A stretch of DNA of 64,000 nt from an uncultured bacterium (GTDB taxonomy: Bacteria; Verrucomicrobiota; Verrucomicrobiia; Limisphaerales; UBA11358): contig CAVRPQ010000001.1 in the NCBI GenBank assembly GCA_963723125.1, forward strand, positions 761,767-825,766. The letters run 5' to 3'. The first letter of the stretch is position 1; each line of letters begins with the position of its first letter. Under the pieces are notes generated by a model, which saw only the letters and a program-made list of their open reading frames with translations, was not told the origin of the DNA and ran no database searches. Below are positions 4,420 to 35,751 of the stretch, piece after piece. Position numbers and translations under genes: made by a program.

Positions 4420-4788
4420 ATGCACCTCCCCCACGATGCCATGTTGTTGCGAATCTTCGTCAGCGAAAACGACCGCTGCGGGCACAAACCGCTCTACGAA
4501 GCCATCGTGCTCAAGGCGCGCGAAATGCACCTGGCGGGCGCGACGGTGCTGCGCGGGCCGATGGGTTTTGGCAAAACCAGCCGGCTGTACACCGCAAAAA
4601 TTCTCCGACTTTCATTGGACCTGCCGCTCGTGATTGACATCGTGGACGGCGAGGAAAAGATCAATTCATTCCTGCCAGTGCTCGATGAGACAATGAAAGG
4701 CGGTTTGGTAACGCTGGAAAAGGCGCGCGTCATTGACTACCGCTCTGATGAGGAGAACGCCATCGGTGTGGAGCAACTCAAAAGTTGA
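4420..4788 (+). CDS. DUF190 (PII-like fold) protein, first gene of the Ehr-type operon
   Basis: 122 aa. LRIFVSENDRCGHKPLYEAIVLKAREMHLAGATVLRGPMGFG is typical of DUF190. AAGGAG lies 12 nt upstream. Confidence 0.75.
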   Translation: MHLPHDAMLLRIFVSENDRCGHKPLYEAIVLKAREMHLAGATVLRGPMGFGKTSRLYTAKILRLSLDLPLVIDIVDGEEKINSFLPVLDETMKGGLVTLEKARVIDYRSDEENAIGVEQLKS

Positions 4789-4790
4789 TT

Positions 4791-17447: not shown

Positions 17448-17471
17448 AACCAAAACTTGAAACCGAAAACT

Positions 17472-18827: not shown

Positions 18828-18999
18828 TAGTATGATTTGGGAGCGCCGCGACTTGGATCCACTAGGCAAACTCCATTACCCGCGGGAGGGGCCGGGAGAA
18901 ATCCGGTCACCACATTCAAGGCGTGTGCGCTCCCTTTAACCGCTCTGTAGAGTGCCGGGATGGTTGTTATTCGTCCCAAAGGATGGTAAAGTTTTAGCA

Positions 19000-19085
19000 G
19001 GCAATGAAGTTTGCCCGTCCGCCTTTGCGGCGAACCGCCTTATGGCTAATGACTTCTACCGAAACTGAACCAGTATCGGTAACGA
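19000..19085 (+). promoter_or_regulatory. structured 5' leader, copy 2
   Basis: GGCAA/TTGCC, CCGC/GCGG, core GGCTAATGACTTCTAC, TACCGA/TCGGTA helix ending just before ATG 19089. TTGTTA-17-TAAAGT promoter upstream. Confidence 0.6.
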
Positions 19086-19088
19086 GTC

Positions 19089-20786
19089 ATGCAAACAACC
19101 AGTTCAGACGAGCGCCTCGAACTGAAGGCGTGTTCAGCGGGCCAGCAGGGGGAAGCGGCGATTCGCGTGATCGCTCCTTCCAATAGGGGCTTCCAAAGTA
19201 TTCTTTTTGAATCTCCCGGCTCTGGAAACCTCGGAGATAACGTTGAGCCGCCGGCCTTTTTTCGGGATTTGAACCTCAATCAGATCGTGGACGCCATCAC
19301 AGCGGGCTGCGAAGAATACAATCTCAAGCCATTCTTTTACACCCGCCCGAATGATCTTGCGGCGATTATTTACCGGCAGGAAGTCATGCGCGACCTTGAA
19401 ACCGCACCGCTGTTCGAGGGCATCAAATCGTTCTCAAACCAAACGCACACGATGCGCAATCATCTCGCCGCTGCGAAAAATTGGCACTACAAGTTCTCGA
19501 AGGGCCGGTGGTTTCTCGATGCTGCGGAAATCTATTGTGCGGCGGTTGTGGAATTGCGGCGCATTCTCGAACACGCCAGTCCCACTTCGCGCGGCCTGCA
19601 CGCCTTTCGGGAATATCTGGCGCAGTATGTTGAATCCGACCGTTTCAAAACACTATGCCGAGAAGCGGAAAATGTGAAATCCGGTTTGTCGGCCATCCGC
19701 TATAGTGTGCGCATCAAGGGCGGCAGCGTTACGGCGAGTCCTTATGATTCCGAGATTGATTACACCGCCGCCGTCGAGGAAACGTTCGCCAAATTCAAGC
19801 AAGGTGCGGTGAAGGATTATCGCTGCAAGTCCACGTCGCTACCGGGCATGAATCACGTCGAAGCCGGAATTCTTGACCGTGTAGCACATTTGAATCCCCA
19901 AGCGTTTCGCGCGCTGGACGACTTTTGCGCGAAGCACGAAAATTTCCTCGAAAAACCAATTGCCGATTTCGACCGCGAAATTCAGTTTTACGTCGCGTAT
20001 TTGGAGTATGCGGAAACCTTCAAACGCGCCGGACTGAAATTCTGTTATCCGCAAGTATCAGACACGCGCAAGGAAGTTTGCAACCGCGATGGATTCGACC
20101 TGGCGTTGGCCGGCAAACTTTTAGGTAGGGCGGGCAGTCCTCTGCCCGCCGTCCCGCAAGGCGAAACCAACGAACGGCGCGCACGGAGTGACGCGCCCTA
20201 CCGCATCGTTTGCAATGATTTCTCTTTGAGTGGGCCGGAACGGATTTTCGTCGTCACGGGACCGAATCAAGGCGGCAAGACGACGTTTGCGCGCACGTTC
20301 GGACAATTGCATTATTTGGCGAGCCTCGGCTGTCCCGTCCCCGGCTCGGAAGCGCGACTTTTTCTCTTCGACCGCCTGTTCACCCATTTTGAGCGCGAGG
20401 AGGACATCAGAACGTTACGCGGCAAGTTGCAAGATGATCTGGTTAGGATTCATCACGTTCTTGAACAAGCCACGCCGAACAGCATCGTCATCATCAACGA
20501 AATTTTTTCCTCCACGAGCGTCAAGGACGGCGTTCATCTGGGCAAGAAAGTGTTGGAACGTCTGTCTCAACTTGATGTGTTGGGCGTTTGCGTGACCTTT
20601 CTGGATGAACTCGCCTCCTTCAATGAAAAGACCGTGAGCGTGGTCGCTGCCGTCGCGCCGGAAAATCCCACGCAGCGCACTTACAAGGTTGAGCGAAGGC
20701 TGGCGGACGGACTGGCCTATGCGCTGGCGATTGCCGAGAAATACCGGCTCACCTACGACCAGCTGAAAGCGAGATTAAAGCCGTGA
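19089..20786 (+). CDS. MutS-family ATPase (domain V type, no recognisable mismatch-binding or Smr domain), paralog A
   Basis: [20 protein letters not shown] (Walker A), [13 protein letters not shown] (Walker B region), VTFLDEL. Confidence 0.8.
20124..20202. repeat. palindromic element family A, copy A3 (in frame in MutS-like A)
   Basis: ggtagggcgggcagtcctctgcccgcc...gacgcgccctacc, encoding [26 protein letters not shown]. Confidence 0.9.
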
Positions 20787-22519
20787 AAGCGCACCTGCTG
20801 TATCGCGACCGCGATTTCGATCTGCAACAGAAATTGCCGGCGAACGAACCGGCGCTGACGCAAGATTTGGAACTGAACACGCTGTTCCGCGCAATGGCCG
20901 GCGGTGACGAATTTCTGTTTCACGTGGCAAAGCGAACGGTCTTGTCGGGTTTGGAAAATGATCTTGCAACCATCCTCTATCGCCAAGCCATCCTCAAGGA
21001 TTGCCTGCGGAACGAAGCCGCCGTAAGGGAAATTTACGACATCGCCGTTGAAGCTATTGAAACCAAACGGACGCATTGGCTGGGTGTTTTCAGCCGCTAT
21101 CCAAGTGGCATCTTGTATGAAGCGGTGAAATTGCTACAAATGTTGATGGGCGTGCTGGCCAAGCTGAAGCGCGTGGCCGATGAGGCCGGTAGGGCGCGCA
21201 GTCCTCTGAGCGCCGTGAACGCTGAGGGACAAACTTCAATTTCCGAACGGCGCGCACGGAGTGACGCGCCCTACCAATTCGAGTCGGAAGGTTTCAAAAC
21301 CTTCTTCGAGATGCTTAAGGCGGAATTGGCGGATGATTATTTTGCCGCCGTCGAAGCGCAACTCAAGGAACTGGAATTCAAGGATGGCGTGTTGGTGAGC
21401 GCGGAATTGGGCGAAGGCAATCAGGGTGTCAATTATGTCCTGCGCAAATCGCTGCGCCCCAGGCCGGGTTGGTTCCAGCGGATTTTTTTACGAAATTCCT
21501 CCGCCTACACCTTCCACATTGACCCACGCGATGACGGCGGTTTCCGTGCTTTGTCGGAATTGCAGGACCGGGGAATCAATTTGGCGGCAAATGCCGTCGC
21601 CCAAGCCGCCGACCACATTACAAGTTTCTTCGTCATGTTGCGGACGGAACTGGCGTTTTACATCGGCTGTCTGAATTTGCAGCATCAGCTTGCGTGGAAA
21701 GGGATGCCGGTTTGCTTTCCGGTTCCCGTGCCGTCCGGCACTCGCAAGCAAACCTGTGTCGGGTTGCGCGACGCCTGTCTTGCGCTGGTTTGTGGCCGCG
21801 ACGCCTCGGCGCGCGAAAAAAAGACCGTGCCATCTGGTTTGCCCATCGGCACAGGTGACGCGGCGTCACCTTTACCTTCTGCGACTAGGGCGTCGCAGCC
21901 ACCTGTCGTCGGCAATGACTTGGCTGCCGATGGAAAGAACCTCATCATCATCACCGGCGCTAATCAAGGCGGCAAATCCACCTTCTTGCGTGGCGTGGGC
22001 CTGGCGCAATTGATGATGCAATGCGGCATGTTCGTCGCTGCCGATTCTTTCAGCGCCGACCTATGCCGCAGCCTGTTCACGCATTACAAGCGCGAGGAGG
22101 ACGCTACGATGACAAGCGGGAAGTTCGATGAGGAACTCGCCCGCATGAGCGGCATTGCCGATGCGCTGACGTCCACCCTCCGCAGTGCTACGGAGGACGG
22201 GTCGGATTCGCTGCTGCTGTTCAACGAGTCCTTCGCCGCGACCAACGAACGGGAAGGTTCGGAGATTGCCCGGCAGATTGTCCGCGCGCTGCTGGAAACG
22301 CGTGTGAAAATCTTTTTTGTGACGCATCTCTACGAATTCGCCCGAACCTTTTGGGAAGATAAAATGGACAGTGCCGTTTTTCTGCGCGCCGAAAGGCAAG
22401 CCGATGGGCAAAGAACTTTCAAGTTGCTGCCGGGCGAGCCGTTGGAAACCAGTTTTGGCGCGGACTTGTATCAAGAGGTTTTTGAAAGTGGCAATGAGCG
22501 CAAAGTTTTGACTCCATGA
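20783..22519 (+). CDS. MutS-family ATPase (domain V type), paralog B
   Basis: GTGA overlap (GTG start) with the upstream stop. [48 protein letters not shown]. Confidence 0.8.
21188..21275. repeat. palindromic element family A, copy A4 (in frame in MutS-like B)
   Basis: ggtagggcgcgcagtcctctgagcgcc...gacgcgccctacc, encoding [29 protein letters not shown]. Confidence 0.9.
21794..21900. repeat. palindromic element family B, copy B4 (in frame in MutS-like B)
   Basis: ggccgcgacgcc ... ggcgtcgcagcc, encoding [36 protein letters not shown]. The right half is near-identical to B2. Confidence 0.85.
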
Positions 22520-23238
22520 ATAACTCAATTCCATTTATCGGCCGCGAAAAGGAAATTGCGCGGTTGCGCCAGTTGCACAAAGAACGTCGGCATGTGCTGA
22601 TTCTTGGCGCGGAAGGGGTGGGCAAATCGGCCCTTGTTGCGCATCTGCGCAAATCGCTCCGCTTGCGCGTCTGTCCGGCGTCGCAACGTTTAAGCGAAAT
22701 TTGTGACGCGCTGGAGCGAGACCTTGGCCTTGAAACCGGCGAACTGCATCTGATTGCGCGCAAGAATCGCGTGCTGAAATCGCTCAAGGAAGCGAAGCGC
22801 ACCGTGGTGGTTTTTGACGGCGCAAGCTGGACAACGCCCAGACTCGGCTCGTTCATCGAAAATGTCAGCGAGCGTGTGCCGGTATGGTTATGCGTCCGTT
22901 CGGAACATCCGTGGGACGTTGGCCGTATCTGGCCGTTGCTGGTGCGGTTCGAGCACGTCGAGTTGAAACCGTTTCGTCCGGTGGAAAGCCGGACGCTGGT
23001 CGAAGCGGCTATTCGGGGCAGTCATGTTCCAGAGAAGACTTTGGACGTTGTTGACTGGCTGCATCGGCGGTCGGCGGGCAATCCAAAAATCTTGTGTGAG
23101 CTGTTGGTGGAAATCGCCCACGGCCATTACAACTTGAGTAACACACACGCGCTGCAACGGCTGGATTTGGACCGGCGCATCCATGAGATTTTTCCGATGG
23201 GAATGAGTGGTGGGAAAACAAGGGTTCAGGATGAATGA
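22516..23238 (+). CDS. AAA/ORC-like P-loop ATPase
   Basis: ATGA overlap with the upstream stop. FIGREKEIARLRQL...VLILGAEGVGKSALV (Walker A), TVVVFDG (Walker B-like). Confidence 0.7.
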   Translation: MNNSIPFIGREKEIARLRQLHKERRHVLILGAEGVGKSALVAHLRKSLRLRVCPASQRLSEICDALERDLGLETGELHLIARKNRVLKSLKEAKRTVVVFDGASWTTPRLGSFIENVSERVPVWLCVRSEHPWDVGRIWPLLVRFEHVELKPFRPVESRTLVEAAIRGSHVPEKTLDVVDWLHRRSAGNPKILCELLVEIAHGHYNLSNTHALQRLDLDRRIHEIFPMGMSGGKTRVQDE

Positions 23239-23647
23239 GGCAATGCTTGTGGCGCTCGCAGGGGCCGTGGCTTTGTTCATGGTTACACTGGTCAAGGCGG
23301 AGTTCTCTCCCGATTTGAGAGCTGCCATTCGCACCACGGTCATCGTGGCCTTGGGATGGAGCTTTGCTTACGCTCGCTACGGAATGAAAACGTGGGCAAA
23401 CTTGACGTGGCAAACGCTATGGATGCTAGGGATTTCCGCGCTGGCAGTAATTCTCGCGTGGCTGTTTTATTGTCGCGCAAGCCGGAAGCAAACCGTTCCG
23501 CGCGTGGCGGTGATGGATCGTGTCAATGCCGGTCTGGCAATCCTTTTCGCCGTCCTGTTTCTGTTGCAACAAGTGTCCGCACAATCCACGCTCACCGGGT
23601 TCGCCCTGGTTGGCGGCGCGTTGTTTTTTGTCCTCGGCTCACGATGA
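23231..23647 (+). CDS. small 4-TM membrane protein (EamA/SMR-like)
   Basis: MNEAMLVALAGAVALFMV... with four hydrophobic spans. Start overlaps the upstream stop (ATGAATGA). Confidence 0.6.
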   Translation: MNEAMLVALAGAVALFMVTLVKAEFSPDLRAAIRTTVIVALGWSFAYARYGMKTWANLTWQTLWMLGISALAVILAWLFYCRASRKQTVPRVAVMDRVNAGLAILFAVLFLLQQVSAQSTLTGFALVGGALFFVLGSR

Positions 23648-25665
23648 ACGAAAACCACCAACGCCATCTGCTCGCCACGTTTCAACACGTGGACAATCTG
23701 CTTTCCGAGGCGGATCACATTCTGGCGTCCGCCGGTTCGTCCTCGCCGTTTCAGGAATACTCGCAGGATTCCACGCCGGTTCAGCGTAAGGTGACGCACG
23801 ATTACATTTTGCGCGTGCGCGAAACCATGCGGCGCATCCTTGACGAACTGAGAATCCCGCCGAAGCCGCCAGTCTCCGGCGCGTTGTGGGCGGCGCGCAA
23901 TCACACGGCCTTCGCCGGTATCGCGGTCACGGAACTCGAACCGGAACACATGCTCGGTTACGGAAAACTCTCGGATGAAGACCAGCAAACACTCGACCGG
24001 ATTGTCGCGGAACTAAACTCGGTTCTCAATCGTCTCAATGCTTATCTCGCTCAAGGAACAGACGCCGATTTGCAGACGCGCCTGCAACGGCTCGAACAAA
24101 CCAAGGACGAGGTGAAATTGCTGCGCGAGTTGGAACGAATCATTACCGCGCACGGTCTGGTTGAATTTCGCGTCACCCTGGCACTTTTGCTCGACCGGCT
24201 GGAAATGAACACGTTTGAAATTGGCGTCTTCGGGCGGGTCAGTTCCGGCAAATCGTCTTTGCTCAATCATCTGCTCGACGGCGAATTTCTGCCGGTGGGC
24301 GTGACGCCCGTGACGGCTGTGCCGACGCGAATCAGTTTTGGTCCGCAGCCGGAAGCCACGGTTGAATTTGCAGAAAGCAAACCGCAAATCGTTGAGTTGA
24401 CACGCCTCGCTGAATTCTCCACGGAGCAACAAAACCCCGGCAACGCCAAACACGTCACGCGGATTCACGTTCAAATCCCGGCGAAGCGCCTTCGCGAAGG
24501 TGTCACCTTCGTGGACACGCCCGGCCTCGGCTCGCTGGCAACTTCAGGCGCGGAAGAAACCGCCGCTTACCTGCCGCGTTGCGATTTGGGAATCGTGTTG
24601 CTCGACGCGGGCGCGGCGTTGACACAAGAAGACCTTGTCGTGGTTCGGTCGCTTTATCGCGCCGGCGCAACGGCAACAGTGCTCATTAGCAAGGCGGATT
24701 TGATCGCCCCACCCGACCGCGAGCGAATGATTGCCTACGTTCGCCGGCACTTGCTCTCGGAACTGAACTTGAACCTGTCGGTGCATCCAGTCAGTGTGGT
24801 TGCTGCGGAAATGCAGCTTTGCGACGAATGGTTTGAGCACGAATTAAAACCTTTGCTCGAATTACATCGGGAAAATGCCGTCACGTCATTGAAACGCAAA
24901 ATCGGCGGCTTGCGCGAAACTGTGGAGCGCATGCTTGAAACCCGACTTGAAAACACACGTGGCGGCGACACTCAAGGTGCTACAACTTCAGTTTCCCAGC
25001 GCAAGGAAGCCGCCGAGGCGCTCCGAAATGCCGACGCGATTCTGGAAACCGCGCAACGAAGCGGCGATTCGCTGGCTTACAAGATTCGTTCGCTGGTGGA
25101 ACAAGTTATTGAAGTTCTTGCCGACGACGTTGCCGCCGTCTGGAGCAAAGCAAATGGAAAATCCAAAACGGCTGCGGAAATCGTTTCCGACTCGTTGAGC
25201 CAAATCGTTTCGAGTCAAGGCGCAAAGTGTGTCGCTGCGCTGGCCCAAGTGCGGGAGCAACTCGCGCAAACGTTGCAATCAGCACATCGGGCGTCGCGCG
25301 TCACCCGCGAGCCGCCCGAAGCATTACCGGAAGCGAGCGGATTGCCGTTGATTGATGTCTCGCCGGTTTCCCGCAGGATCACCCTCAAAAAGCCGATGCT
25401 GTTGCCGATTTTCGGCCAAGCCGTTCTGCGAAGCTACGTCCGCCAGCAGTTGAAGCAACAACTCGGCGATGCTTTTTCCGAATTTTTAGGGCTGGCGGGC
25501 AAACAATGGGAGCAATGGTATCGGCGCGCGCTGGCTGAATTGCAAAGAACCTTTGCCGCCAGCGCCGGAATTTATCAGGCACAGTTACAGCAATTGTCGG
25601 GCACCGCATCCGGCGAATCGGAACTTCAAAAAGACCTGGATGTTTTGAAAAGCTGGCCCAAATAA
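23644..25665 (+). CDS. dynamin-like GTPase, paralog 1
   Basis: ATGA overlap with the upstream stop. G1 GRVSSGKSSLLN, G3 FVDTPGLGS, G4 ISKADL, followed by a long helical stalk. Confidence 0.8.
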   Translation: MNENHQRHLLATFQHVDNLLSEADHILASAGSSSPFQEYSQDSTPVQRKVTHDYILRVRETMRRILDELRIPPKPPVSGALWAARNHTAFAGIAVTELEPEHMLGYGKLSDEDQQTLDRIVAELNSVLNRLNAYLAQGTDADLQTRLQRLEQTKDEVKLLRELERIITAHGLVEFRVTLALLLDRLEMNTFEIGVFGRVSSGKSSLLNHLLDGEFLPVGVTPVTAVPTRISFGPQPEATVEFAESKPQIVELTRLAEFSTEQQNPGNAKHVTRIHVQIPAKRLREGVTFVDTPGLGSLATSGAEETAAYLPRCDLGIVLLDAGAALTQEDLVVVRSLYRAGATATVLISKADLIAPPDRERMIAYVRRHLLSELNLNLSVHPVSVVAAEMQLCDEWFEHELKPLLELHRENAVTSLKRKIGGLRETVERMLETRLENTRGGDTQGATTSVSQRKEAAEALRNADAILETAQRSGDSLAYKIRSLVEQVIEVLADDVAAVWSKANGKSKTAAEIVSDSLSQIVSSQGAKCVAALAQVREQLAQTLQSAHRASRVTREPPEALPEASGLPLIDVSPVSRRITLKKPMLLPIFGQAVLRSYVRQQLKQQLGDAFSEFLGLAGKQWEQWYRRALAELQRTFAASAGIYQAQLQQLSGTASGESELQKDLDVLKSWPK

Positions 25666-25869: not shown

Positions 25870-27777
25870 ATGCCCAAGAAAATCCAACGAACCAGTAGAG
25901 CCAAACGCCAGCAAAACAGCTCTGCCGCTCTGCATGAAGACACGCTGCCGTATCGCGTCAATAGCACTATTGTTGGTCAAGAGCGCAAGGTCTTATTTAA
26001 CGCCGCGCGCTCGCCAAAGCATGTGGACAAGCCATTCAGTGGAGACATTGCTGCGGGCAAAAACACCTACGTTTACGACGCTCACACCTACCACACAAAA
26101 GTTCCGCCTCAAGGCATTGAGAAGTTGATTGAGTATTACACGCGCCCCGGTGACGTCGTGCTTGATCCTTTTTGCGGCTCCGGCATGACGGGTGTTGCTG
26201 CGACGCAGCGTGGGCGCAAAGCGTTGTTGAGCGATTTATCGCCGGCGGCGGTTTTCATCGCGCGAAATCTCAATACGCCGGCGGATGCGGACAAGTATCT
26301 ACAAGCGGTTCGCGCCATGCTGGAATCGTCTTCAAAGATTGAACACTCGCTTTACGACACGCGCTGCCGGCGTTGTGGCGAGCGGGTCCCGATGCTTTAC
26401 ATGGTTTGGAGTTACGGCGTCATTTGTCCGCACTGTGAACGCGAGATTGTTCTTTGGGACGTGGCGCGCGACGAACGGGAAAGCGTGCGCGAGAGTAAAA
26501 TCCTTTCTGAATTCAATTGTCCACATTGCAAGAGCCATTTGAAAAAGCGCGGCTTGAAGCGAACAAAACGCCATGCAGTTCAGGTGGGTTACAAATGCTG
26601 CACTCGCAGCTTAAAGGAAGCGACTGCGCCGCTGGATGATTTTGACAAATCGCAACTACAGCGGATCGGGCGGGCCGGCGTGCCGCGCGGGTTGTGGTAT
26701 CCAACCGCCGCTTTTCCGCCCGGGATCAACACGCGCCAGCCGATTGCCGCTGGCATCACGACTGTGGACAAAGCTTACACGCCGCGCGCCCTCTACGCGA
26801 TGGCTCACCTCTGGGATGCCGCCTCCCGCTGGCCGGACAAAGCAATGCGTGAAAAATTGCACTTCACGCTGACTTCGCTCTACCAGCGCGTGACGCTTTT
26901 TTCAGAATTCCGATTTTGGGGCGGCAGTGGGAATACTGCCAACTACAACGTCCCGTTCATCATAAATGAACAAAACGTCTTTCGCACGTTTGCCCGCAAG
27001 GCCAATACCATCAGTTGGTATTTCAAGACCGCGCCGCGCGTTCCGCGAGAGGTCGAAGTTCGCACCCAATCCGCGTGTCGTCTGACGCATATTCCCGACA
27101 AATCCGTGGATTACATCTTTACCGATCCGCCGTTTGGCGGAAATATCAACTATTCAGAAATGAATTATCTTTGGGAAAGCTGGCTGGGTGAGCGCACGGA
27201 AACAGCAGAGGAAGCCATCATCAATTCCGTTCAGGGCAAAGGCGCGCCGGAATATCGCGCGCTGCTTTGCAAGGCGTTTCGCGAATGCCGGCGCGTGCTC
27301 AAAGACGACGCTTGGATGACCGTGATTTTCCACAATTCATCCGACGAAGTATGGAAGGCGTTGCAAGGAGCACTCATGGACGCGGGATTTGCGGTGGAGG
27401 GAACGCAGACCTTCGACAAGGAACACGGCACATTCAAGCAGTTCGTTTCCGAAAATGCGGTTGGCTACGATTTGGTTTTGCACTGCCGCAAGACCGAGAC
27501 CGCGCGGACGTTCAGCGTGCAAACTCAAAAACAAATCATCTCGGACGCCGCTGAATTTATTCGCAGCCGGCTGGCTGGCAACGGCGAACGATACTTGGTC
27601 CATTATCTTCATGTTGACCGCGCCGCAGAAGTTGACTACCGAAAACTTTACGCGGAATGGCTGGCCATTGCCGTTCCTGATACGCTAGTTTCAATCGGTT
27701 TCGAGGAATTCCGCGCCGTGGCAGAAAAAGTCGCGCCCAAATTGAAGCTTCAACCCAAACAACTCGCATTTGTCTGA
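25870..27777 (+). CDS. DNA methyltransferase (N6-A or N4-C), alpha-type motif order
   Basis: Motif I VVLDPFCGSGMTG, motif IV IFTDPPFGG about 300 aa downstream. Cys pairs CRRCG...CPHCE and CPHCKSH lie between them. Confidence 0.85.
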   Translation: MPKKIQRTSRAKRQQNSSAALHEDTLPYRVNSTIVGQERKVLFNAARSPKHVDKPFSGDIAAGKNTYVYDAHTYHTKVPPQGIEKLIEYYTRPGDVVLDPFCGSGMTGVAATQRGRKALLSDLSPAAVFIARNLNTPADADKYLQAVRAMLESSSKIEHSLYDTRCRRCGERVPMLYMVWSYGVICPHCEREIVLWDVARDERESVRESKILSEFNCPHCKSHLKKRGLKRTKRHAVQVGYKCCTRSLKEATAPLDDFDKSQLQRIGRAGVPRGLWYPTAAFPPGINTRQPIAAGITTVDKAYTPRALYAMAHLWDAASRWPDKAMREKLHFTLTSLYQRVTLFSEFRFWGGSGNTANYNVPFIINEQNVFRTFARKANTISWYFKTAPRVPREVEVRTQSACRLTHIPDKSVDYIFTDPPFGGNINYSEMNYLWESWLGERTETAEEAIINSVQGKGAPEYRALLCKAFRECRRVLKDDAWMTVIFHNSSDEVWKALQGALMDAGFAVEGTQTFDKEHGTFKQFVSENAVGYDLVLHCRKTETARTFSVQTQKQIISDAAEFIRSRLAGNGERYLVHYLHVDRAAEVDYRKLYAEWLAIAVPDTLVSIGFEEFRAVAEKVAPKLKLQPKQLAFV

Positions 27778-27779
27778 TC

Positions 27780-28759
27780 ATGGCCAAAGTTCAAACTCTT
27801 CCAGCGTTCACGCTCGACCAAAGGACCAGAGCACATGCGCTGCTCGCTGCGAAAGTCGCCTACATGATGGGGCGCAAATTTGAGGAGGGTGACTGGGCGG
27901 AAGTTTATTGCAAGGCCAAGGGCATTCCGGTCCGGGGTTGGAGCAACCTGAACATTGACCTCATGCACGAGGGCCTCGGCGTCGAACACAAGATGCTCTG
28001 TTACCGTTCGGATGCCGACCTCGCGGAAGCCTTCGGGCAAACGCTCATGCACCCGGCAGCAACGCGTTCCATCCGGGTGCCGCCGACCAACGTTGCCGCT
28101 GACAAAGCGATGCGGGACATTTTCCAACAGTATGCGGCGCTGATTCAGCAACGGACAAACAAAGTCAGCGAAACCGCGCCGAAGGGCAAAGAATCGGATA
28201 TGCGGACCGGCTGGCTTTTGTGGCAGGAAAGCTTGCGCCAGTTCCTGTATTTTGAAGAACCGATGCTCGCTCCCGATCCGAAGGATTTTTATGCCGAGTG
28301 GCACGATAGCGGTGGTGGCGCGCGCAAGGCTAGTCGTAATCTCTGGGTTTTGACAAAGCCACCGGCCACAAACGCTATTCCATCACCACATCCGCCGGCG
28401 CAAAAATTCAGCCCTACTTCGATGTGCCGCCGCCGAACGATCCAAACGTGTATCTGTTCACCGTCATCGGTGAAGTGATCGGGGTCGGGATGGTGCGGGT
28501 CTGGCTGACCATCGCGACATTTCGGGAATTGAAACGCGTGCTCGGCGAATTCGACACAGCCAAGCTCAGTGAGTTTGTATTGCGGAAACTGGAGGGTATC
28601 TCACCGAGCCTGACAATTCGGGAGGGAAATGAACCTGCCGCTGAATCCATTATTTTGACGGCAGACGCTTATTTGAAGCTCAAGGCCGTGTTCCCCGGCG
28701 TAAACGACGACAACAGTTTTCAGTTATTTCTCGAACTTCTGGGTGGCAGACAATCATAA
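27780..28759 (+). pseudogene. putative PD-(D/E)xK restriction endonuclease, frameshifted
   Basis: Starts 2 nt after the methyltransferase stop. Candidate catalytic NIDLMHEGLGVEHK. The reading frame jumps at G3T4 (28345-28351); one extra T restores ...RNLWVFDKATGHKRYSITTS... (326 aa). Confidence 0.6.
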
Positions 28760-28828
28760 ATTTCATTTTTAAGATATTGCTGGTTTTGCGGCGCTTGCCA
28801 TTGAAGCAGCGGATGCTATATTGAATCC

Positions 28829-28911
28829 GGCAATGGAATCTGCCTCCCGGCTCGCGGGAAAACGCCCTCCGGCTAATGACTCCTACCAAAACAAAATGAA
28901 ATGGTAGTGGG
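28829..28911 (+). promoter_or_regulatory. structured 5' leader, copy 3
   Basis: GGCA/TGCC, CCCG/CGGG, core GGCTAATGACTCCTAC, 3' arm GGTAGTGGG ending 2 nt before ATG 28914. TTGCCA-16-TATATT promoter at 28795-28822. Confidence 0.65.
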
Positions 28912-28913
28912 TT

Positions 28914-29668
28914 ATGAAAGTGCTCATCCTCTCCGATGTTCACGGTAACTGGCCGGCGCTCCGCGCCGTTCTCGAAACCGAATCTGATGCCGACCAGATT
29001 CTCTTTCTGGGCGACCTCGTCAATTTTGGTCCGCAGCCCGCCGAATGCGTGGCTTGGGCGAAGGAACTCGTGCCGCCGGAATGGGTGATTCAGGGGAACC
29101 ACGACCGGGCGGTCGGATGCGGTGAAGACCCGCATTGTTCGTCCGCTTACGCAGTGCTGGCCAAAGCAACGCAGCCGATCAGCGAACGGATGCTCGCGCC
29201 GGAACTGAAACAATTTCTCGCCAAACTTGAGCCGCTGCACCGCTGCGAGTTGGGAAAGGCGGAATGTGTCGCCTGCCACGCCACTCCGAATGATCCGCTT
29301 TACGGTTACCTGCCTGAAACCGCGCCGGCGACACTTTGGAACGCCGAACTGCTCGCGGCAGGGCTGCCGGACTTTTTTTCCTCGGGCATACGCATGTTCC
29401 AATGAAAACACGGCTGATGAAAATGCTCATTGTCAATCCTGGCAGCGTTGGCTTGCCGCAACACGGCGATCCGCAGGCGGCTTATGCAGTTTGGGAGGAC
29501 GGCGAGGTTGAGCTTCGTCGCAAGGCTTATGATGTCGAGGAAACCATTCGCGCTTACTACGAGCTTGGGATTGCACCAAAGGTGCTGGAACGATTGACGG
29601 AAATGTTGCGAACCGGAAAAGGGCTGTCGCCGGAACATTTCGACGACGTTGTAAAAACCCCGGCGTAA
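28914..29668 (+). pseudogene. YfcE-like metallophosphoesterase, paralog 1, frameshifted at a T7 run
   Basis: SDVHGNWPAL, LGDLVNFG, GNHD. The frame changes at T7 (29373-29379); T8 would give PDFFFLGHTHVPMKT, collinear with paralog 2. Confidence 0.75.
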
Positions 29669-29681
29669 AAGGCAATGAACC

Positions 29682-30818
29682 ATGAAAATGCTTCTCATAT
29701 CCGACATCCACGGCAACTGGCCTGCGCTGCAAGCGGTGTTGGCGGCCGAGCCAGATGCCGATCAGATTCTTTGTCTCGGCGACCTCGTCAACTACGGACC
29801 GCAGCCGGCGGAATGTGTCGCTTGGGCGATGAAAACGCTGACTGCCGAATGGCTGATTCAAGGCAACCATGACCGCGCCGTGGCGCTGGACGAAGACCCG
29901 CGTTCGTCCGTGCCTTACAAGGCGCTGGCGACCGCGACTCAAGAATTAAGCGCGAGTGTGGTTTCACCGGAGATGAAACAGTTCCTCGCCGCATTGCAGC
30001 CGCTGCAACGGTTCAAGTTGAATGAAATCATGTGCGTTGCGTGCCACGCCGTGCCGTCGGACCCGCTCTACACCTATCTGCCGGAAACCGCTTCAGTGCC
30101 GCTTTGGGAATCCGAACTGAATGGCATTGGCTATCCCGATTTTTTATTCATCGGCCACACGCACAAGCCGACGAAAACACGCTTTCGCCGGACGCTGATC
30201 GTGAACCCCGGCAGTGTCGGGCAGCCCAAAGACGGCGACCCGCGCGCGGCGTATGCCATTTGGGAGGACGGCGAAGTAACGCTGCGTCGCGCGGCTTACG
30301 ATGTTGAGGAAACCATTCGCGCCTGCCGCAGCACACGACTCGATCCGCAGATGGTAGATGCGTTGGCCGAAGTGTTGCGCACCGGCGGGCACTTGCCGCT
30401 TGATCAAAACCCTTATGAACAATTCAACGCCCATTTCCAAAAGCATCCAGACAAGCTCGCCGGACTTTTTCACCTGCAAAAGCTATTGAACAAACGCATC
30501 GGCGTGGACACGGACAAGATGACCGAAGCCCAGCGGCGGCAATGGCTTCTAAACTATTGCCTGGCGATGGACCAGGAACTGTCCGAGTTGGTGAATTGCG
30601 TGCCGTGGAAGTGGTGGGCGAGTTATCAGAAATTCGACAAACAAAACGCACGGGTTGAAATCGTGGACTTGTTGCACTTCCTCATTTCGCTGGCACAAGT
30701 GATGGAAATGACGCCGGACGAATTATTCGAGGCTTACACGAAGAAACATATCGTCAATCTCGCGCGGCAAGACTCCGGTTACACCGTCAAAGATGAAAGC
30801 GACAACAAGCACATTTGA
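29682..30818 (+). CDS. metallophosphoesterase fused to a dimeric-dUTPase-like (all-alpha NTP pyrophosphatase) domain
   Basis: N-terminal half: SDIHGNWPAL, GDLVNYG, GNHD, GHTH. C-terminal half: LAMDQELSELVNCVPWKWW...ARVEIVDLLHFLISLA resembles dUTPase_2/MazG-type folds. Confidence 0.7.
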   Translation: MKMLLISDIHGNWPALQAVLAAEPDADQILCLGDLVNYGPQPAECVAWAMKTLTAEWLIQGNHDRAVALDEDPRSSVPYKALATATQELSASVVSPEMKQFLAALQPLQRFKLNEIMCVACHAVPSDPLYTYLPETASVPLWESELNGIGYPDFLFIGHTHKPTKTRFRRTLIVNPGSVGQPKDGDPRAAYAIWEDGEVTLRRAAYDVEETIRACRSTRLDPQMVDALAEVLRTGGHLPLDQNPYEQFNAHFQKHPDKLAGLFHLQKLLNKRIGVDTDKMTEAQRRQWLLNYCLAMDQELSELVNCVPWKWWASYQKFDKQNARVEIVDLLHFLISLAQVMEMTPDELFEAYTKKHIVNLARQDSGYTVKDESDNKHI

Positions 30819-30821
30819 AAC

Positions 30822-32462
30822 ATGAATCAGGTGGATGGCATTCTCAACCGCGTCTCCGGTTTGGCCGGGGAATTGAAGCTGGCCAATCTCCAGCCGCAAA
30901 TCGCCGCGTGCCGGAAACAATTCAACGGCAGCAGCCACGGCATTGACGTGGCGGTATTTGGCCGGTTCAAAGCAGGTAAAAGTTCGTTCCTCAACCATTT
31001 GACCGGACGCGCCGTGCTGCCCATCGGCGTCGTGCCGCTTACGGCGGTCATCACGCGGCTGCGCTTTGGGCCTGCCGAGAAGGTCACGGTGCGTTTCCTG
31101 AACGGCAGCGCCAAAACCATTCCGCTTGGAGAAATCGGTCTCTACGTTGGCGAGAAGGAAAATCCGAACAATCAAAAGCAGGTTGGGTCAGTCGAAGTCG
31201 AACTGCCCGCACTCAAGCTGCTGGAGCCGCTGGAATTCGTGGACACGCCGGGCCTCGGCAGCGCATTCACGCACAACACCGAAACCACCTTCCAATGGCT
31301 GCCCTATGTTGGCGCCGCGCTCGTGGCGGTCAGTTGCGACGCGCCATTGTCGGAGCGCGACTTGGCGCTGCTGGACGAATTGCGCCGTCACACGCCGAAA
31401 ATCGTTTTGCTGTTGACGAAAGCAGATTTGCTGAACGAACCGCAGCGCGCCGAAGTGTTGTCGTTTGTCCGCCAGCAACTCCGCCAGAAATTGGAAACGG
31501 ACTTGCCGGTTTTTTTCTATTCCGTGAAGCCGGAATGCACGACTCTGAAGACCGAACTCGAACAAAATCTTTTATCACCGCTTATCCGCAATCGCGGCGA
31601 AGCCGCTGACCAGATTGGACGGCACAAACTGCTCTCGCTGGTGGGGCGGACGCTGGATTATCTGCGTGTCGCGCTGGCTGCGGCGACGCAGGCGGAATCT
31701 TCGCGCGCGGCGTTGCGCGAAAAACTGGCGGACGAACGCCGCCAGTTCGATTTGTTCCGCGAAGAACTTCAGGTGCTATCGCGCCAGTGGTCGGCCCAGG
31801 CGCTGAATCAGTCGCTGCTCAAATTGAAACCGCGACAAGAAGCCTTACAGGAACAAATCACAACCGGGTTGCAGGCGCAGCTTCCGCATTGGCCGTCGCG
31901 ATTGCCGCCGCTGTTGCGAACGTGGCGTGAATGGTTGCAAAACATCCTGAACCATGAACTCACCGATATTTCGAGCGCGGAAAAGACGACCTTCCTTGAA
32001 CCGCTAAAGCGCGTGGAACAACACCTGATGCGGACGCTTCAAGCCCTTCAGCATCGGCTCGCCGGACATGTGCAAGCTGCGCTCGGCGTCACGCTCGCGC
32101 CACACGATATTGTCCTCGAAGTGCCCGAACCTGCCGCGCCGCCGATTGACATCGGTTATGTGGACGCGGCATTCAGCCTCATCAGCCCGCTCATTCCGAT
32201 GAGTTTATTCAGTCCGGCGATTGAACGGTCGCTGCTGCGGAAATCGCGCTGGGAAACCGAGAAAAATCTTTCGCGCCTGGCATCCAACTGGCGCGACCGC
32301 GTAGCCAAAGGCATCAGCGAGTTGACCCGGCAGGCCGAGCAGCAGGCGCTGGACGAACTGGCTGCGCTCGAACACACGCTGAAGCAAACCGCCTCCAAAG
32401 CGCCCGAATTGAAACGAGCCATTGAGGAGTTGGAACAGTTCCAGGAGCGATTACGTGGATGA
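30822..32462 (+). CDS. dynamin-like GTPase, paralog 2
   Basis: G1 GRFKAGKSSFLN, G3 FVDTPGLGS, G4 LTKADL. The GTPase domain is collinear with paralog 1 (23644-25665). Confidence 0.8.
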   Translation: MNQVDGILNRVSGLAGELKLANLQPQIAACRKQFNGSSHGIDVAVFGRFKAGKSSFLNHLTGRAVLPIGVVPLTAVITRLRFGPAEKVTVRFLNGSAKTIPLGEIGLYVGEKENPNNQKQVGSVEVELPALKLLEPLEFVDTPGLGSAFTHNTETTFQWLPYVGAALVAVSCDAPLSERDLALLDELRRHTPKIVLLLTKADLLNEPQRAEVLSFVRQQLRQKLETDLPVFFYSVKPECTTLKTELEQNLLSPLIRNRGEAADQIGRHKLLSLVGRTLDYLRVALAAATQAESSRAALREKLADERRQFDLFREELQVLSRQWSAQALNQSLLKLKPRQEALQEQITTGLQAQLPHWPSRLPPLLRTWREWLQNILNHELTDISSAEKTTFLEPLKRVEQHLMRTLQALQHRLAGHVQAALGVTLAPHDIVLEVPEPAAPPIDIGYVDAAFSLISPLIPMSLFSPAIERSLLRKSRWETEKNLSRLASNWRDRVAKGISELTRQAEQQALDELAALEHTLKQTASKAPELKRAIEELEQFQERLRG

Positions 32463-32542
32463 TTTACGATTTACAATTTGCGATTTACGCGGTTCAGATG
32501 AAACCGGCGCGCTCGTAAATCGTAAATCTGAAATCGTAAATC
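32461..32542. repeat. long hairpin built from heptamer arrays (GATTTAC-type)
   Basis: Left arm gatttacgatttacaatttgcgatttacg, right arm cgtaaatcgtaaatctgaaatcgtaaatc, loop of about 24 nt. Begins at the stop codon of the GTPase gene. Confidence 0.8.
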
Positions 32543-32556
32543 CCAAGGATGGTTCG

Positions 32557-33360
32557 GTGCTGCGGCTGATTCCGGCGGGCGGGTTTATCATGGGTTCAAC
32601 GCCGGAGCAGATTGAAGCCGCGCGGCTGATGGACATCGGCGGGCACGAGTTCCTGCTGTTGGACGAACTGCCGCAGTTCCGCGCGTTCCTGCCGGATTTT
32701 TATTTGAGCGAATGCACTGTGACAAACGAGCAATTCGCAAAGTTTCTAAACGCGACATGCCCGCCGCCTGCACAACTGAAACTTTGGGTGCCGTCGTTGG
32801 AGCGAATCAGTATCCCTGCGGACAAAAACGAAATTTATCGTGTCGCATCCGGTTTTGAAAAACATCCGGTCGTTCACGTCTCATGGTTCGGCGCGGATGC
32901 CTACTGCCACTGGGCCGGGTTGCGTCTGCCGACGGAACTGGAATGGGAAAAGGCCGCGCGCGGCACGGACGGACGGCTTTATCCGTGGGGCAACGAATGG
33001 CATGACGATGTTCTGCGCTGGCACAACACGGCGAAGCACGGCTTGACGACCGCGCCGGTGGACAATTATCCGCAAGGCCGTTCGCCGTTCGGCATTTTCC
33101 AAATGGCCGGCAACGTGGATGAATGGTGCGCCGACCCGTATCAATGGGACATTTATCGACGTTACTCCATCGGTGATTTGCGTCCGCCATCAAACGGCGC
33201 AACGCGCATCATTCGCGGCGGAACGTGCATTGGCTGGCAGAAAATCCGTTTCCGCTGCGCGCACCGGCGCGGCAACGACGCGGCCATCGTAAATATTCAT
33301 TACACCGGCATCCGCTGCGCGTGCGACGCGGCGCAACTGGGGCAGACAACAAAACCATAA
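32557..33360 (+). CDS. FGE/SUMF1-like (formylglycine-generating enzyme family) protein
   Basis: HPVVHVSWFGADAYCHWAGLRLPTELEWEKAARGTDGRLYPWGNEW, MAGNVDEWC, RIIRGG. Start is uncertain: GTG 32557 is chosen so the hairpin stays intergenic, but the ORF is open from 32422. Confidence 0.75.
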   Translation: MLRLIPAGGFIMGSTPEQIEAARLMDIGGHEFLLLDELPQFRAFLPDFYLSECTVTNEQFAKFLNATCPPPAQLKLWVPSLERISIPADKNEIYRVASGFEKHPVVHVSWFGADAYCHWAGLRLPTELEWEKAARGTDGRLYPWGNEWHDDVLRWHNTAKHGLTTAPVDNYPQGRSPFGIFQMAGNVDEWCADPYQWDIYRRYSIGDLRPPSNGATRIIRGGTCIGWQKIRFRCAHRRGNDAAIVNIHYTGIRCACDAAQLGQTTKP

Positions 33361-33492
33361 ACACAGCAATCTTTTATTTAGAACTGTGTCCTTAATTTCA
33401 GAAAGTTTAACAATAAATATCAACGTCACTGCTAGTTGTCGAAATCCGACGAGAATTGTTGTCGTCGAGACAAAAAAGCTATGTTGTTAGTA

Positions 33493-33584
33493 GGCAATGG
33501 ATGTCTGCCCATCCCGGCCAACGGGTAAAGCGCCTTCCGGCTAATGACTCCTACTGAACAAAGACAATTTGTCCCGGTAGCGAG
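33493..33584 (+). promoter_or_regulatory. structured 5' leader, copy 4
   Basis: GGCA/TGCC, CCCG/CGGG, core GGCTAATGACTCCTAC, GGTAGCGAG arm ending 2 nt before ATG 33587. TTGTTG-18-TATGTT promoter upstream. Confidence 0.6.
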
Positions 33585-33795
33585 TTATGAATGTGAAGTT
33601 CACATCCTGCGTTTACGGCCCATGCAACAACGCCTGCATTCGAGCTGCAAGAAACTTCACTAAAACCGCTGCCGGGACAGTATTGGGAACTGAGAGGCGT
33701 GCCGGTAGTTCTTCGCAATTCGTGACAATTGTTTTTGTCACAGAGGCATTTCCCGTCGTCATTCACCGCGAAACCAATTTTCTTCAACCCGTTCG

Positions 33796-33870
33796 GGCAA
33801 TGGAGTTTGCCCGCTGCTTGGCAGCAAACCGCCGATCGGTGGATGACTCCCACCGAAACCACCTCACTGG
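33796..33870 (+). promoter_or_regulatory. structured 5' leader, copy 5 (divergent)
   Basis: GGGCAA/TTGCCC, GCTGC/GCAGC, divergent core GGTGGATGACTCCCAC. Lies 15 nt upstream of ATG 33885. No clear promoter of its own. Confidence 0.45.
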
Positions 33871-33884
33871 AAAGGAAAAGAATT

Positions 33885-34316
33885 ATGAAAGTGCTTATTG
33901 TATCCGACATTCATGGTAATTGGCCGGCACTCCGCACCGTTTTGGAGGCTGAACCCAAATTCGACCAAATCCTGTGCCTGGGTGATTTGGTCAATTACGG
34001 CTCACAGCCGGTGGAATGCGTCACGTGGGCACAGGAAATCGCCTCGGACGCGATTGTTTTGCAGGGCAACCATGACCGGGCGTTGGGACTGAACCTTGAC
34101 CCGCATTGTTCGGCCGCCTACGAAACGCTCGCGGCGGCGACGCAGGAAATCACTGAGCGGATGTTGACGCCGGAACTCAAGGCGTTTCTCGCCGGGCTTC
34201 GTCCCTTGCGGCGTTTTCATCTGGACAAGGCCAAATGCTTTGCCTGCCATGCCTCGGCCAGAGATCCGCTTTACCATTACCTGCCCGCAGAGGGTGAGCT
34301 GCGAACCATTGTATAA
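33885..34316 (+). pseudogene. YfcE-like metallophosphoesterase, paralog 3, 3'-truncated
   Basis: Collinear with paralogs 1 and 2 up to ...DPLYHYLPAE. It then diverges and stops, so the GHTH and C-terminal half are missing. Confidence 0.7.
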
Positions 34317-34487
34317 GTCCTTTACCAGACCGTCGGCGTGTCGTTTGGCCTGTGAGTAGGAAGCAAACGACACCATCTGCCGGCGTCCGGCCACGCGCCA
34401 AGCTACACGGTAAGAATCACGTCCTTTGCACTTGCGGTAGATCGCGGCGAGGATTTTGCCAGAAATTTTATGCGCTTTGGATATTTC
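34299..34487 (-). pseudogene. integrase N-terminal fragment (tentative)
   Basis: Minus-strand frame reads ...KISGKILAAIYRKCKGRDSYRVAWRVAGRRQMVSFASYSQAKRHADGLVKDLYNGSQ, resembling arm-type N-termini of tyrosine recombinases. No start codon. Abuts the truncated phosphoesterase gene. Confidence 0.3.
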
Positions 34488-34644
34488 ACTTTTGCGCCCT
34501 CGATTTTAGCCTCTTCATGTGTCAGGGCCGTGTCAGAACTGCAAGAAACCTCAATTTCATTGGATTTATTGGCTCCCTAGGTCATTCCATAGAAAGAACT
34601 TTTAAAATCACAGTTTCACTTGGCAGATCAGGACGCAGAAGGCC

Positions 34645-35421: not shown

Positions 35422-35608
35422 AGCGTCATAACGCTACCGTGACCGAGATTCAGACCTGAAATTAGTATGGGGACAGTAAGTGAACCATTCTCACCATTAT
35501 GCAGTAGTGACGCTGCAAAAGGCGTTTTCCCCCTCACTTTCCCCCTCACTTTGGCCTTTTTCGACCTGCCACTGGCTCAAAACCCCTCAAAAATAAGGGC
35601 TTTTGAAA

Positions 35609-35683
35609 TGGCTCCAGAGGCAGGGCTCGAACCTGCAACCCGCCGGTTAACAGCCGGCTGCTCTACCATTGAGCTACTCTGGA
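35609..35683 (-). tRNA. tRNA-Asn (anticodon GTT), CCA encoded
   Basis: Hand-folded cloverleaf: TCCAGAG-TA-GCTC-AATGGTA-GAGC-A-GCCGG-CTGTTAA-CCGGC-GGGTT-GCAGG-TTCGAGC-CCTGC-CTCTGGA-G-CCA. Confidence 0.9.
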
Positions 35684-35751
35684 ACCCAAGCAGGACAGGA
35701 AATCTACAAACCGGAGGACGACGCGTCAAACGGATTCCACGTTGTTCCATG

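Follow-up and report, generated by a model that had tools for sequence, protein, structure and literature searches.

The fluoride riboswitch, also called the crcB motif (RF01734; Weinberg et al. 2010), lies in the 5' leaders of genes and has been associated with enolase, formate-hydrogen-lyase (FHL)-type complexes, antiporters, HAD phosphoesterases, and mutS-like genes (PMC2864571, PMC11139923). Fluoride inhibits metal-dependent phosphoryl-transfer enzymes, e.g., enolase and pyrophosphatase, and hydrogen fluoride (HF) flowing into the cell puts membranes under stress and dissipates the proton gradient (PMC11139923). Here we analyse a group of genes from an uncultured bacterium of the Limisphaerales (Verrucomicrobiota), at 28795-33360 of a 64-kb stretch of contig CAVRPQ010000001.1. 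We call this whole stretch the window, and all coordinates are positions in it; L001 and the like are the homologous loci with which it was compared, P0080 and the like homologous proteins. An original prediction, made from the letters of the sequence, had described these genes as a second leader-controlled operon, with a possible role in phage defence. We find instead that 28795-33360 is probably a fluoride-inducible unit, the distal half of a cluster present in Verrucomicrobiota of soil, peat, bog, and fen, which would supply back-up phosphohydrolase and NTPase capacity. The sequence evidence that a fluoride riboswitch controls the unit, and that the unit belongs to a conserved fluoride-stress cluster, is strong; the back-up function is what we infer. 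The locus shares with the known regulons the aptamer family, its placement in 5' leaders, and some of the cargo (enolase, Na+/H+ antiporter, Usp, DUF190, an FHL-like complex, MutS-like and HAD genes). It differs from them in a further cargo made of a metallophosphoesterase (MPE)-dUTPase_2 fusion, paired dynamin-like GTPases, an AAA16 ATPase, and a protein with the fold of formylglycine-generating enzymes (FGE).

Genes and domains in the window were called from a listing of open reading frames (ORFs) and from Pfam scans. These place every element of the original prediction on the + strand, in the order that it gave, and uphold its domain assignments, including the dimeric-dUTPase-like C-terminal domain, which is also matched by sequences in the PDB. 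The unit consists of the following features.

28795..28822, + strand: predicted sigma-70-like promoter (TTGCCA, 16 nt spacer, TG-TATATT)
28820..28892, + strand: fluoride riboswitch aptamer RS3 (RF01734), named leader copy 3 in the original prediction
28876..28915, + strand: expression platform (minimum-free-energy fold)
28914..29668, + strand: MPE1, stand-alone metallophosphoesterase paralogue, a pseudogene (Pfam Metallophos / Metallophos_2 on each half)
29682..30818, + strand: MPE-dUTPase_2 fusion, 378 aa (Pfam Metallophos_2, dUTPase_2)
30822..32462, + strand: DynB, dynamin-like GTPase, 546 aa (Pfam Dynamin_N)
32461..32541, + strand: heptamer-array inverted repeat (4x GATTTAC-like, then 4x GTAAATC-like)
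32557..33360, + strand: FGE-sulfatase-fold protein, cytoplasmic, 267 aa (Pfam FGE-sulfatase)

The genes are tightly packed, with intergenic gaps of 13 nt and 3 nt, the latter being the previously noted distance from the stop codon of the fusion to the start of the GTPase gene.

By its match to RF01734, the repeated leader is a predicted fluoride-sensing riboswitch; the original prediction had given it no identity, and this has to be revised since the match exceeds the curated threshold. We scanned the whole window at the Rfam gathering thresholds (34 bits for RF01734) and more permissively. At the gathering thresholds, it contains one tRNA-Asn and four fluoride riboswitches, all four on the + strand: RS1 (53.4 bits), RS2 (50.2 bits), RS3 (48.3 bits, E=2.6e-10), and RS4 (38.6 bits). 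RS3 stands 14 bits over the threshold, and its conserved core nucleotides all align to the family. The permissive scan added RS5, which is under the gathering threshold (28.3 bits, E=7.7e-5), and with it the density reaches five riboswitches in 30 kb. A clade-specific covariance model built from ten copies, R1, whose training set is Verrucomicrobial, scores RS3 at 75 bits and RS5 at 66.9 bits, and gathered 59 aptamers from the window and the related loci. Across the 58 distinct ones, 96.9% of the cells of P1, P2, and the pseudoknot are paired, and, with the pseudoknot counted, 7 of 13 pairs have changed on both sides in a compensatory way; the versions seen in the pseudoknot include GGAG:CUCC, GAAG:CUUC, GGAA:UUCC, and GGGG:CCCC. 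None of 500 shuffles equalled the observed values, and slid controls gave 25-76% pairing. One pseudoknot pair (columns 20/105 of alignment A5) is mismatched in 11 aptamers, a point to which we return; the adjacent pair is often C-G in place of U.G, six of the 11 aptamers directly precede phosphoesterase genes, and the mismatch may tune the fluoride threshold.

The sequences around RS3 fit the control of the genes that follow. The promoter-like site, a consensus match (10/12, with an extended -10) and the best one in 25600-35700, ends at 28822, so that transcription would start at the 5' edge of the aptamer. The end of the aptamer is 21 nt from the AUG at 28914, and the corresponding distance to the start codon of the phosphoesterase gene is 15-27 nt in about 16 related loci. 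In the minimum-free-energy fold of 28820-28925, the 3' strand of the pseudoknot, UGACUCCUACC, pairs with GGUAGUGGGUUA, the region of the Shine-Dalgarno (SD) sequence and AUG directly before position 28914. The folds of RS2 and RS4 have the same layout, with the ribosome-binding site (RBS) sequestered; the platform of RS1 differs, with a hairpin followed by a U-run (U6) that resembles a terminator. The fold points to RS3 being a translational ON switch. In the absence of fluoride, the pseudoknot strand would pair with the SD/AUG region of the first cistron and block its translation; binding of the Mg2+-F- complex would lock the pseudoknot, release the RBS, and allow expression of the tightly packed downstream genes. 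Such ON-switch logic, in which an expression platform and the 3' strand of the aptamer compete, is standard in fluoride riboswitch regulons, and the RS3 version apparently acts on translation.

Across the homologous loci, the link between the cluster and fluoride riboswitches is near-universal. A scan of species-representative genomes produced 25 loci, nearly all with Verrucomicrobiota labels and several from bog, fen, or peat, and in 23 of them R1 detects 1-4 riboswitches on the same strand. Of the two loci in which R1 found none, L023 has the cluster abutting the enolase gene without a spacer, and L032 is an unrelated match of 34% identity. In L001, L002, and L004-L008, the Rfam model itself detects fluoride riboswitches just before the cluster, at the head of both modules, and canonical aptamers (52 bits) head the same gene set in other species. 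About 20 contigs of an independent metagenome sample, together with L034 and L035, reproduce the riboswitch-linked pattern. The conserved order is AAA16 ATPase, DynA-type GTPase, an optional riboswitch, an optional MPE, MPE-dUTPase_2, DynB-type GTPase, and FGE-like protein; in homologue contigs an unknown gene and a HEAT_2 gene come after the FGE-sulfatase gene. The riboswitch is most often immediately before the phosphoesterase gene and not before the GTPase gene, and some riboswitches are internal to the cluster, with up to four or five within 20-30 kb. The cluster usually lies beside riboswitch-controlled Na+/H+ antiporter, Usp, and enolase genes, and often follows them directly. The neighbourhood is conserved as well, since the same gene set recurs across relatives and, in 11 of the 14 species-level loci with the fusion, the very next gene is DynB (tblastn). 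Homologues of the fusion fall into more than 90 clusters at >=60% identity, and all the clusters with a named source are from Verrucomicrobiota or Limisphaerales. From these comparisons, the cluster appears to be a syntenic chromosomal feature across a phylum and not a sporadic island.

The unit is therefore leader-controlled, as the original prediction had it, but it is not an operon apart: it is the distal half of one conserved cluster. The other relevant features of the window are these.

4199-4280, + strand: riboswitch RS1 (RF01734)
18991-19065, + strand: riboswitch RS2 (RF01734)
18991..25665, + strand: proximal half of the cluster, with RS2, two MutS_V-only ATPases, an AAA_16 ATPase, and DynA (Rfam, Pfam)
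25870..28759, + strand: inserted module resembling restriction-modification (RM) genes, with a PglX-like N6 methyltransferase and a split partner ORF (Pfam, PADLOC)
33484..33560, + strand: riboswitch RS4 (RF01734), followed by a decayed gene start
33787..33859, + strand: riboswitch RS5 (RF01734, under the gathering threshold)
33885..34286, + strand: MPE3, truncated third metallophosphoesterase copy (tblastn, Pfam)

The proximal half is contiguous with the MPE-dUTPase, DynB, and FGE-like genes in L009, L010, L016, L040, and L042; in the first three of these, DynA, riboswitch, and MPE-dUTPase gene follow one another, and in L001, L002, and L021 the whole set is a single riboswitch-headed operon. 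Because the halves are contiguous or fused in relatives, the two 'operons' of the window are one conserved cluster. Judged by this gene order, the RM-like module is a lineage-specific insertion that splits the cluster in two. Its PglX-like methyltransferase reaches 425 bits in PADLOC, and its partner ORF is split in two frames. The module is absent from the junction in L009, L010, and L016, and at the same junction L022 has a different, D12 methyltransferase and an unknown gene (6953-9062), which suggests an insertion hotspot. The argument for insertion draws on L009, L010, L016, L040, and L042; the L018 contig ends in a DynA fragment and is uninformative here.

Upstream, RS1 heads a DUF190 gene (4420..4788), a hydrogenase-4/Mrp-like membrane complex of ~13 kb with NuoH-, NuoL/M-, 49-kDa/30-kDa-, and 20-kDa-type subunits, and the enolase gene (window 4199-18827). 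The two paralogous MutS_V-only ATPases behind RS2 (565 and 578 aa) lack mismatch-binding domains, are under all NCBIfam MutS cut-offs, and are probably the 'mutS' association that was reported for the crcB motif in 2010. Elsewhere, the window contains three copies, 99.9-100% identical, of a 1,476-bp insertion sequence (45026-46501, - strand; 48117-49594, + strand; 56915-58389, + strand), each with an ORF of 473 aa weakly similar to UPF0236 (transposase-like).

The first domain of the fusion protein (residues 1-240) matches Metallophos_2 with 66 bits, the cut-off being 27. Its closest solved relatives, by sequence and by fold, are 3rqz (sequence E=7.6e-26), YfcE, and SapH (Spr1479). Foldseek on the model of the whole fusion returned 3rqz and SapH, reporting the phosphoesterase domain only; SapH, among the best structural matches, is a streptococcal Ap4A hydrolase/phosphodiesterase. 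The domain has in common with these phosphodiesterases the calcineurin-like fold and all the binuclear-metal motifs (DxH, GD, GNHD, H, GHTH), which are invariant or nearly so in 25 homologues: D8, H10, G33, N62, H63, D64, H122, H159, and H161 are invariant and D34 nearly. The protein differs from them in being under the cut-off for YfcE (NCBIfam TIGR00040, 51.3 bits versus 56.25) and in its C-terminal domain of the NTP-pyrophosphatase type. In fact, no protein of the cluster reaches the cut-off of any curated family in NCBIfam.

This C-terminal domain (~residues 245-378; dUTPase_2, 73.5 bits versus a cut-off of 22.9) is, by its sequence matches, a short dUTPase of the dimeric type whose catalytic motifs appear intact. 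It matches the dimeric dUTPases of Leishmania, Trypanosoma cruzi, T. brucei, and Campylobacter jejuni with E=1e-12 to 5e-8 (2cje and 2yay, E=1.3e-12; 1ogk, 1.4e-9; 1w2y, 5.5e-8), and its ExxE, PWKWW, ExxD-HF, and KHxxNxxRQxxGY motifs each find their counterpart, residue for residue, in the aligned enzymes of L. major and T. cruzi. The motifs of the rigid domain (E=1e-12) and the all-helical fold are thus common to this domain, the dimeric dUTPases, and the all-alpha NTP pyrophosphatases. It is distinguished from the dimeric dUTPases by its fusion to a metallophosphoesterase, its riboswitch control, and its length: the domain has ~130 aa and not the full architecture of a rigid and a mobile domain (230-290 aa), its alignment to 2cje skips chain residues ~105-170, the mobile domain of ~100 residues is absent, and the score to the NCBIfam dUTPase equivalog is 41.6 bits versus a cut-off of 300. 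The top Foldseek matches of a separate model of the domain (predicted local distance difference test, pLDDT, 80) are the T. cruzi and L. major dUTPases, DCTPP1, AF1178, RS21-C6, MazG, YpjD, and DR2231, with probabilities of 0.9-1.0, TM-scores up to 0.68, and weak E-values (0.06-2). The best structural matches are accordingly NTP pyrophosphatases, the fold that had been anticipated for this domain.

The catalytic and uracil-binding motifs are kept in 22 riboswitch-linked and 25 stand-alone copies of the domain, which appears to be under strong purifying selection at the catalytic motifs; a divergent subgroup (P0080, P0081, P0085, P0087) has lost them. The stand-alone genes, a large family (~125-160 aa, in the metagenome loci L060-L117; e.g., L060 7956-8372 and L110 7902-8378) are 62-72% identical to the fused domain, have all the motifs in common with it, and lie in ordinary, variable, and unrelated contexts. 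Near them we found no fluoride riboswitch with R1, a Verrucomicrobial-trained model that could miss divergent ones. They are probably the housekeeping dUTPase of these lineages. Because these close paralogues have the same motifs and lie in contexts without riboswitches, the fused domain looks like a fluoride-inducible second copy, as is the riboswitch-controlled enolase. In L035, MPE and dUTPase_2 are separate adjacent genes behind one riboswitch, a split form that supports the linkage of the two enzymatic domains.

DynB, with 78 bits to Dynamin_N (cut-off 27), has the GTPase motifs G1 (GRFKAGKS), G3 (DTPG), and G4 (TKAD). It is a paralogue of DynA (769 aa, 23356..25665), the GTPase of the operon with the MutS-like genes (29% identity, E=3e-47), a relation that had been correctly recognised. 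Bacterial dynamin pairs, such as B. subtilis DynA, M. tuberculosis IniA/IniC, E. coli LeoABC of Eleos, and CrfC, have in common with the two proteins a Dynamin_N domain and a long helical stalk, and they too come as two paralogues per cluster. The differences are that the genes of DynA and DynB are parted by the phosphoesterase gene, that they are under fluoride-riboswitch control, and that neither protein has an evident transmembrane segment or hydrophobic paddle (maximum 19-residue hydropathy <1.6). The similarity to LeoA/LeoBC is remote (E 1e-8 to 1e-12): in PADLOC, DynB has only a partial match to LeoA (E=5e-10, 37 bits) and DynA partial matches to LeoA and LeoBC. We reject membership of Eleos, given these partial matches and a different gene architecture. 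Limisphaerales is the label of a protein with 100% identity to DynB. Homologues 83-84% identical, with the same riboswitch cluster (L034, L035; P0151, P0155, P0191), occur in metagenome-assembled genomes (MAGs) labelled Acidobacteriota (Sulfopaludibacter) and Eremiobacterota (Aquilonibacter / Baltobacteraceae), which reflects either mis-binning or horizontal transfer among peat bacteria. Some other homologues (73-78% identity; P0172, P0177, P0180, P0187, P0196) are ~710 aa long and have N-terminal GAF domains, a sign that in some lineages small molecules may control the GTPase.

The last gene encodes a protein of the FGE-sulfatase fold (Pfam 166.5 bits; 6muj, E=4.8e-28) that falls under the cut-offs of all NCBIfam families. 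Its start is most likely the GTG at 32557, which gives 267 aa as called for the L035 orthologue, and this replaces the TTG at 32422 of the original prediction. The fold is shared with FGE/SUMF1, the C-domain of EgtB, PvdO, and PorK/GldK. The label FGE/SUMF1-like that the protein had received stands for the fold and fails for the enzyme. In the alignment to the S. coelicolor FGE (6muj/2q17), LCHDSYC faces -CIGWQK, so that the Cu-binding catalytic pair Cys-x4-Cys becomes Cys-x4-Lys. The protein lacks the second catalytic cysteine and the signal peptide of a true FGE, is unlikely on this alignment to be a formylglycine-generating enzyme, and was rejected as a functional FGE/SUMF1-type enzyme by this active-site comparison. 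It resembles many FGE-fold proteins of unassigned or non-FGE function, and among the cluster genes no sulfatase was identified, although no search dedicated to it was made.

The heptamer array is present between the GTPase and the FGE-like gene as described, and it fills the gap from the stop codon of DynB to the SD sequence of the following gene. Together with its flanks (32440-32560, 121 nt) it has a folding energy of -43 kcal/mol (z=-3.7), and an array occurs in the same position in at least ten loci (L009, L011, L012, L015, L016, L018, L022, L035, L038, L055). Conservation is far higher in its right arm than in its left. We do not claim a conserved RNA structure: the copies fold singly, the RNAalifold consensus is weak, there is no covariation, and the Rfam scan of the window matched no family to the array. 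It may be a protein-binding array of heptads rather than a hairpin. GATTTAC / GTAAATC heptamers are also found at 9751-9778 of the window.

The local history of the phosphoesterase genes is one of duplication and decay, as had been proposed. The frameshift in MPE1 is real and splits the gene into 28914..29405 and 29336..29668: compared with the intact orthologues of L022 and L018, which have GGATTTCCTTTTCC and GGATTTTCTTTTTC, respectively, at this site, a 1-nt deletion makes a T7 run (29373-29379) and a -1 frameshift. Two further assemblies, L036 and L037, have the same T7 lesion; a sequencing error is unlikely with the run present in these assemblies too, which possibly stem from the same population. 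MPE1 seems dispensable because many relatives lack it and have the riboswitch directly before the fusion gene. MPE3 keeps only the first ~134 residues, 60% identical to residues 1-134 of the fusion (tblastn), and has two leader copies, RS4 and RS5, upstream. After RS4, a decayed start, ATGAATGTGAAG, is found at 33587 where the MPE genes have ATGAAAGTGCTC, and no intact gene follows. The RS4 homologue of L018 (4981-5055) heads an operon of M20 peptidase, CMAS-like methyltransferase, HAD hydrolase, and MFS transporter genes. In L009, L018, and L022, the third module is riboswitch, MPE, FGE-like gene, and dynamin-like gene. The region after MPE3 in the window (34645-35683) contains an integrase-like ORF remnant of 258 aa, with no Pfam or NCBIfam match, and then a tRNA-Asn (35609-35683, - strand); the remnant may be the trace of an integrative element by which the remainder of the third module was lost.

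How would such a unit help under fluoride? Fluoride would poison Mg-dependent phosphoryl-transfer enzymes, and the proteins of the cluster would provide extra or replacement capacity. Part of it would be activities of a dUTP/dNTP pyrophosphatase and of a phosphodiesterase or Ap4A-hydrolase-like enzyme, for hygiene of the nucleotide pool and hydrolysis of phosphodiester or Ap4A-type bonds, jointly with the MutS-like, AAA16, and dynamin-like proteins of the proximal half. We regard this back-up model as the most economical because all products except the FGE-fold protein are metal-dependent phosphoryl-transfer enzymes, the class inhibited by fluoride, and its logic parallels that of the riboswitch-controlled second enolase next door. 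Several points weigh against it. Binuclear metallophosphatases and Mg-dependent NTP pyrophosphatases are plausible fluoride targets themselves, and compensation leaves the co-occurrence of two dynamin-like GTPases, an AAA16 ATPase, and an FGE-fold protein unexplained. The promoter, the RBS-sequestering helix, and the co-transcription of the operon are predictions. In this genome, neither the first nor the third phosphoesterase copy is intact. RS3 and ten relatives (11 of 58 aptamers) are mismatched at one pseudoknot pair (A.C or U.C; A.C in RS3), and the fluoride threshold, or even the function, of such aptamers could differ. This riboswitch class most often controls exporters, and behind the five riboswitches of the 64-kb window, at odds with the known regulons, no crcB/Fluc or CLC-F exporter was identified (no dedicated search was made). 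Finally, Baker et al. 2012 reportedly described fluoride riboswitch regulons; the cargo of the cluster was not found in the searchable fluoride literature, and the gene list of that study, outside this coverage, could include metallophosphoesterases.

A bolder reading, which we hold only tentatively, keeps the regulation and makes the MutS_V-only ATPases, AAA16, DynA, MPE-dUTPase_2, DynB, and the Cys-deficient FGE-fold protein one dedicated, multi-component fluoride-damage response system of Verrucomicrobiota from acid soil and peat. If so, it would be a tolerance mechanism apart from fluoride export and plain enzyme overproduction; for instance, it could remove nucleotides that are aberrant or trapped by fluoride and mend the damage to DNA or membranes that follows. 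The mutS-like genes, long associated with fluoride riboswitches for no evident reason, would then be a part of it that is already in view. A serious alternative, though in our view much less likely than the back-up model, is a fluoride-regulated cluster whose core is the maintenance of membrane or nucleoid by DynA and DynB, in the manner of bacterial dynamin-like proteins that mend membranes under stress, with the MPE-dUTPase and the FGE-like protein as accessories instead of house-cleaning enzymes. Paired bacterial dynamin-like proteins are typical of membrane-remodelling systems. The two GTPases are the most constant partners in the cluster, there is a weak NCBIfam match to the clamp-binding dynamin CrfC, and HF influx does stress membranes and dissipate the proton gradient (PMC11139923). 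However, the lack of an evident paddle or transmembrane segment in both proteins, the position of the riboswitch, mostly right before the phosphoesterase gene, and the apparent purifying selection on the dUTPase_2 catalytic motifs speak against this reading.

The remaining readings are still less probable. The unit might be a decaying and functionless remnant in this genome, with translational coupling abolished by the frameshift in its first gene and nothing useful left for the riboswitch to control; MPE1 is indeed frameshifted in three assemblies, MPE3 is truncated, RS4 precedes only a decayed start codon, and the cluster is split by an insertion. Yet the fusion, DynB, and FGE-like genes are intact full-length ORFs, 79-89% identical in DNA to L018 and L022 and with their motifs retained, and MPE1 is absent from many relatives, which makes this reading improbable. 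We give even less credence to the phage-defence role of the original prediction, in which the MPE-dUTPase would act as an effector that, with the dynamin-like GTPase, depletes nucleotides or degrades signals on infection. The adjoining PglX-like module, the integrase-like remnant and tRNA-Asn downstream, the variable copy number with decaying copies, and the remote similarity of the GTPases to LeoA/LeoBC would all fit such a role. The leader and the synteny with fluoride-regulon genes speak against it: in dozens of genomes, the unit is near-universally behind a fluoride riboswitch and usually beside enolase and antiporter genes, across a phylum and not as a sporadic island. The RM-like genes are a lineage-specific insertion and not members of the cluster, the PADLOC matches of the GTPases are weak and generic, and no PADLOC model rises beyond noise for the fusion, MutS-like, or FGE-like proteins. 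That the leader has drifted to another ligand or to none, leaving the operon unresponsive to fluoride, is the idea we find hardest to credit. The mismatched pseudoknot pair of RS3 and its ten relatives is in its favour, but the Rfam score and aligned core of RS3, the canonical aptamers at the head of the same gene set elsewhere, and the clean compensatory changes at other pseudoknot positions all argue for a retained ligand.

What was already known is the riboswitch class and the broad idea of a fluoride regulon. In the searchable literature, with the list of Baker et al. 2012 outside it, we found neither this cargo nor its conservation across the phylum, nor riboswitches at such a density; phosphoesterase and dynamin are absent from the supplements of Weinberg 2010. 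The locus is also a cautionary case, since a cluster of NTPases and nucleotide hydrolases beside RM genes resembles phage defence until its leader RNA is identified. Fluoride riboswitches mark genes that are needed when fluoride accumulates, and beyond exporters, enolase, pyrophosphatase, and antiporters much of this 'super-regulon' is unexplained, e.g., the mutS-like genes noted in 2010. Knowing more of it is relevant to the engineering of fluoride-tolerant strains for the degradation of organofluorines. Here, a lineage of Verrucomicrobiota from peat and soil, habitats whose low pH would favour the entry of HF into cells, keeps a defined set of enzymes under repeated fluoride-riboswitch control. 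These enzymes are candidates to reveal new intracellular targets of fluoride or new routes of repair, in the hygiene of the nucleotide pool or in the maintenance of membrane or nucleoid.

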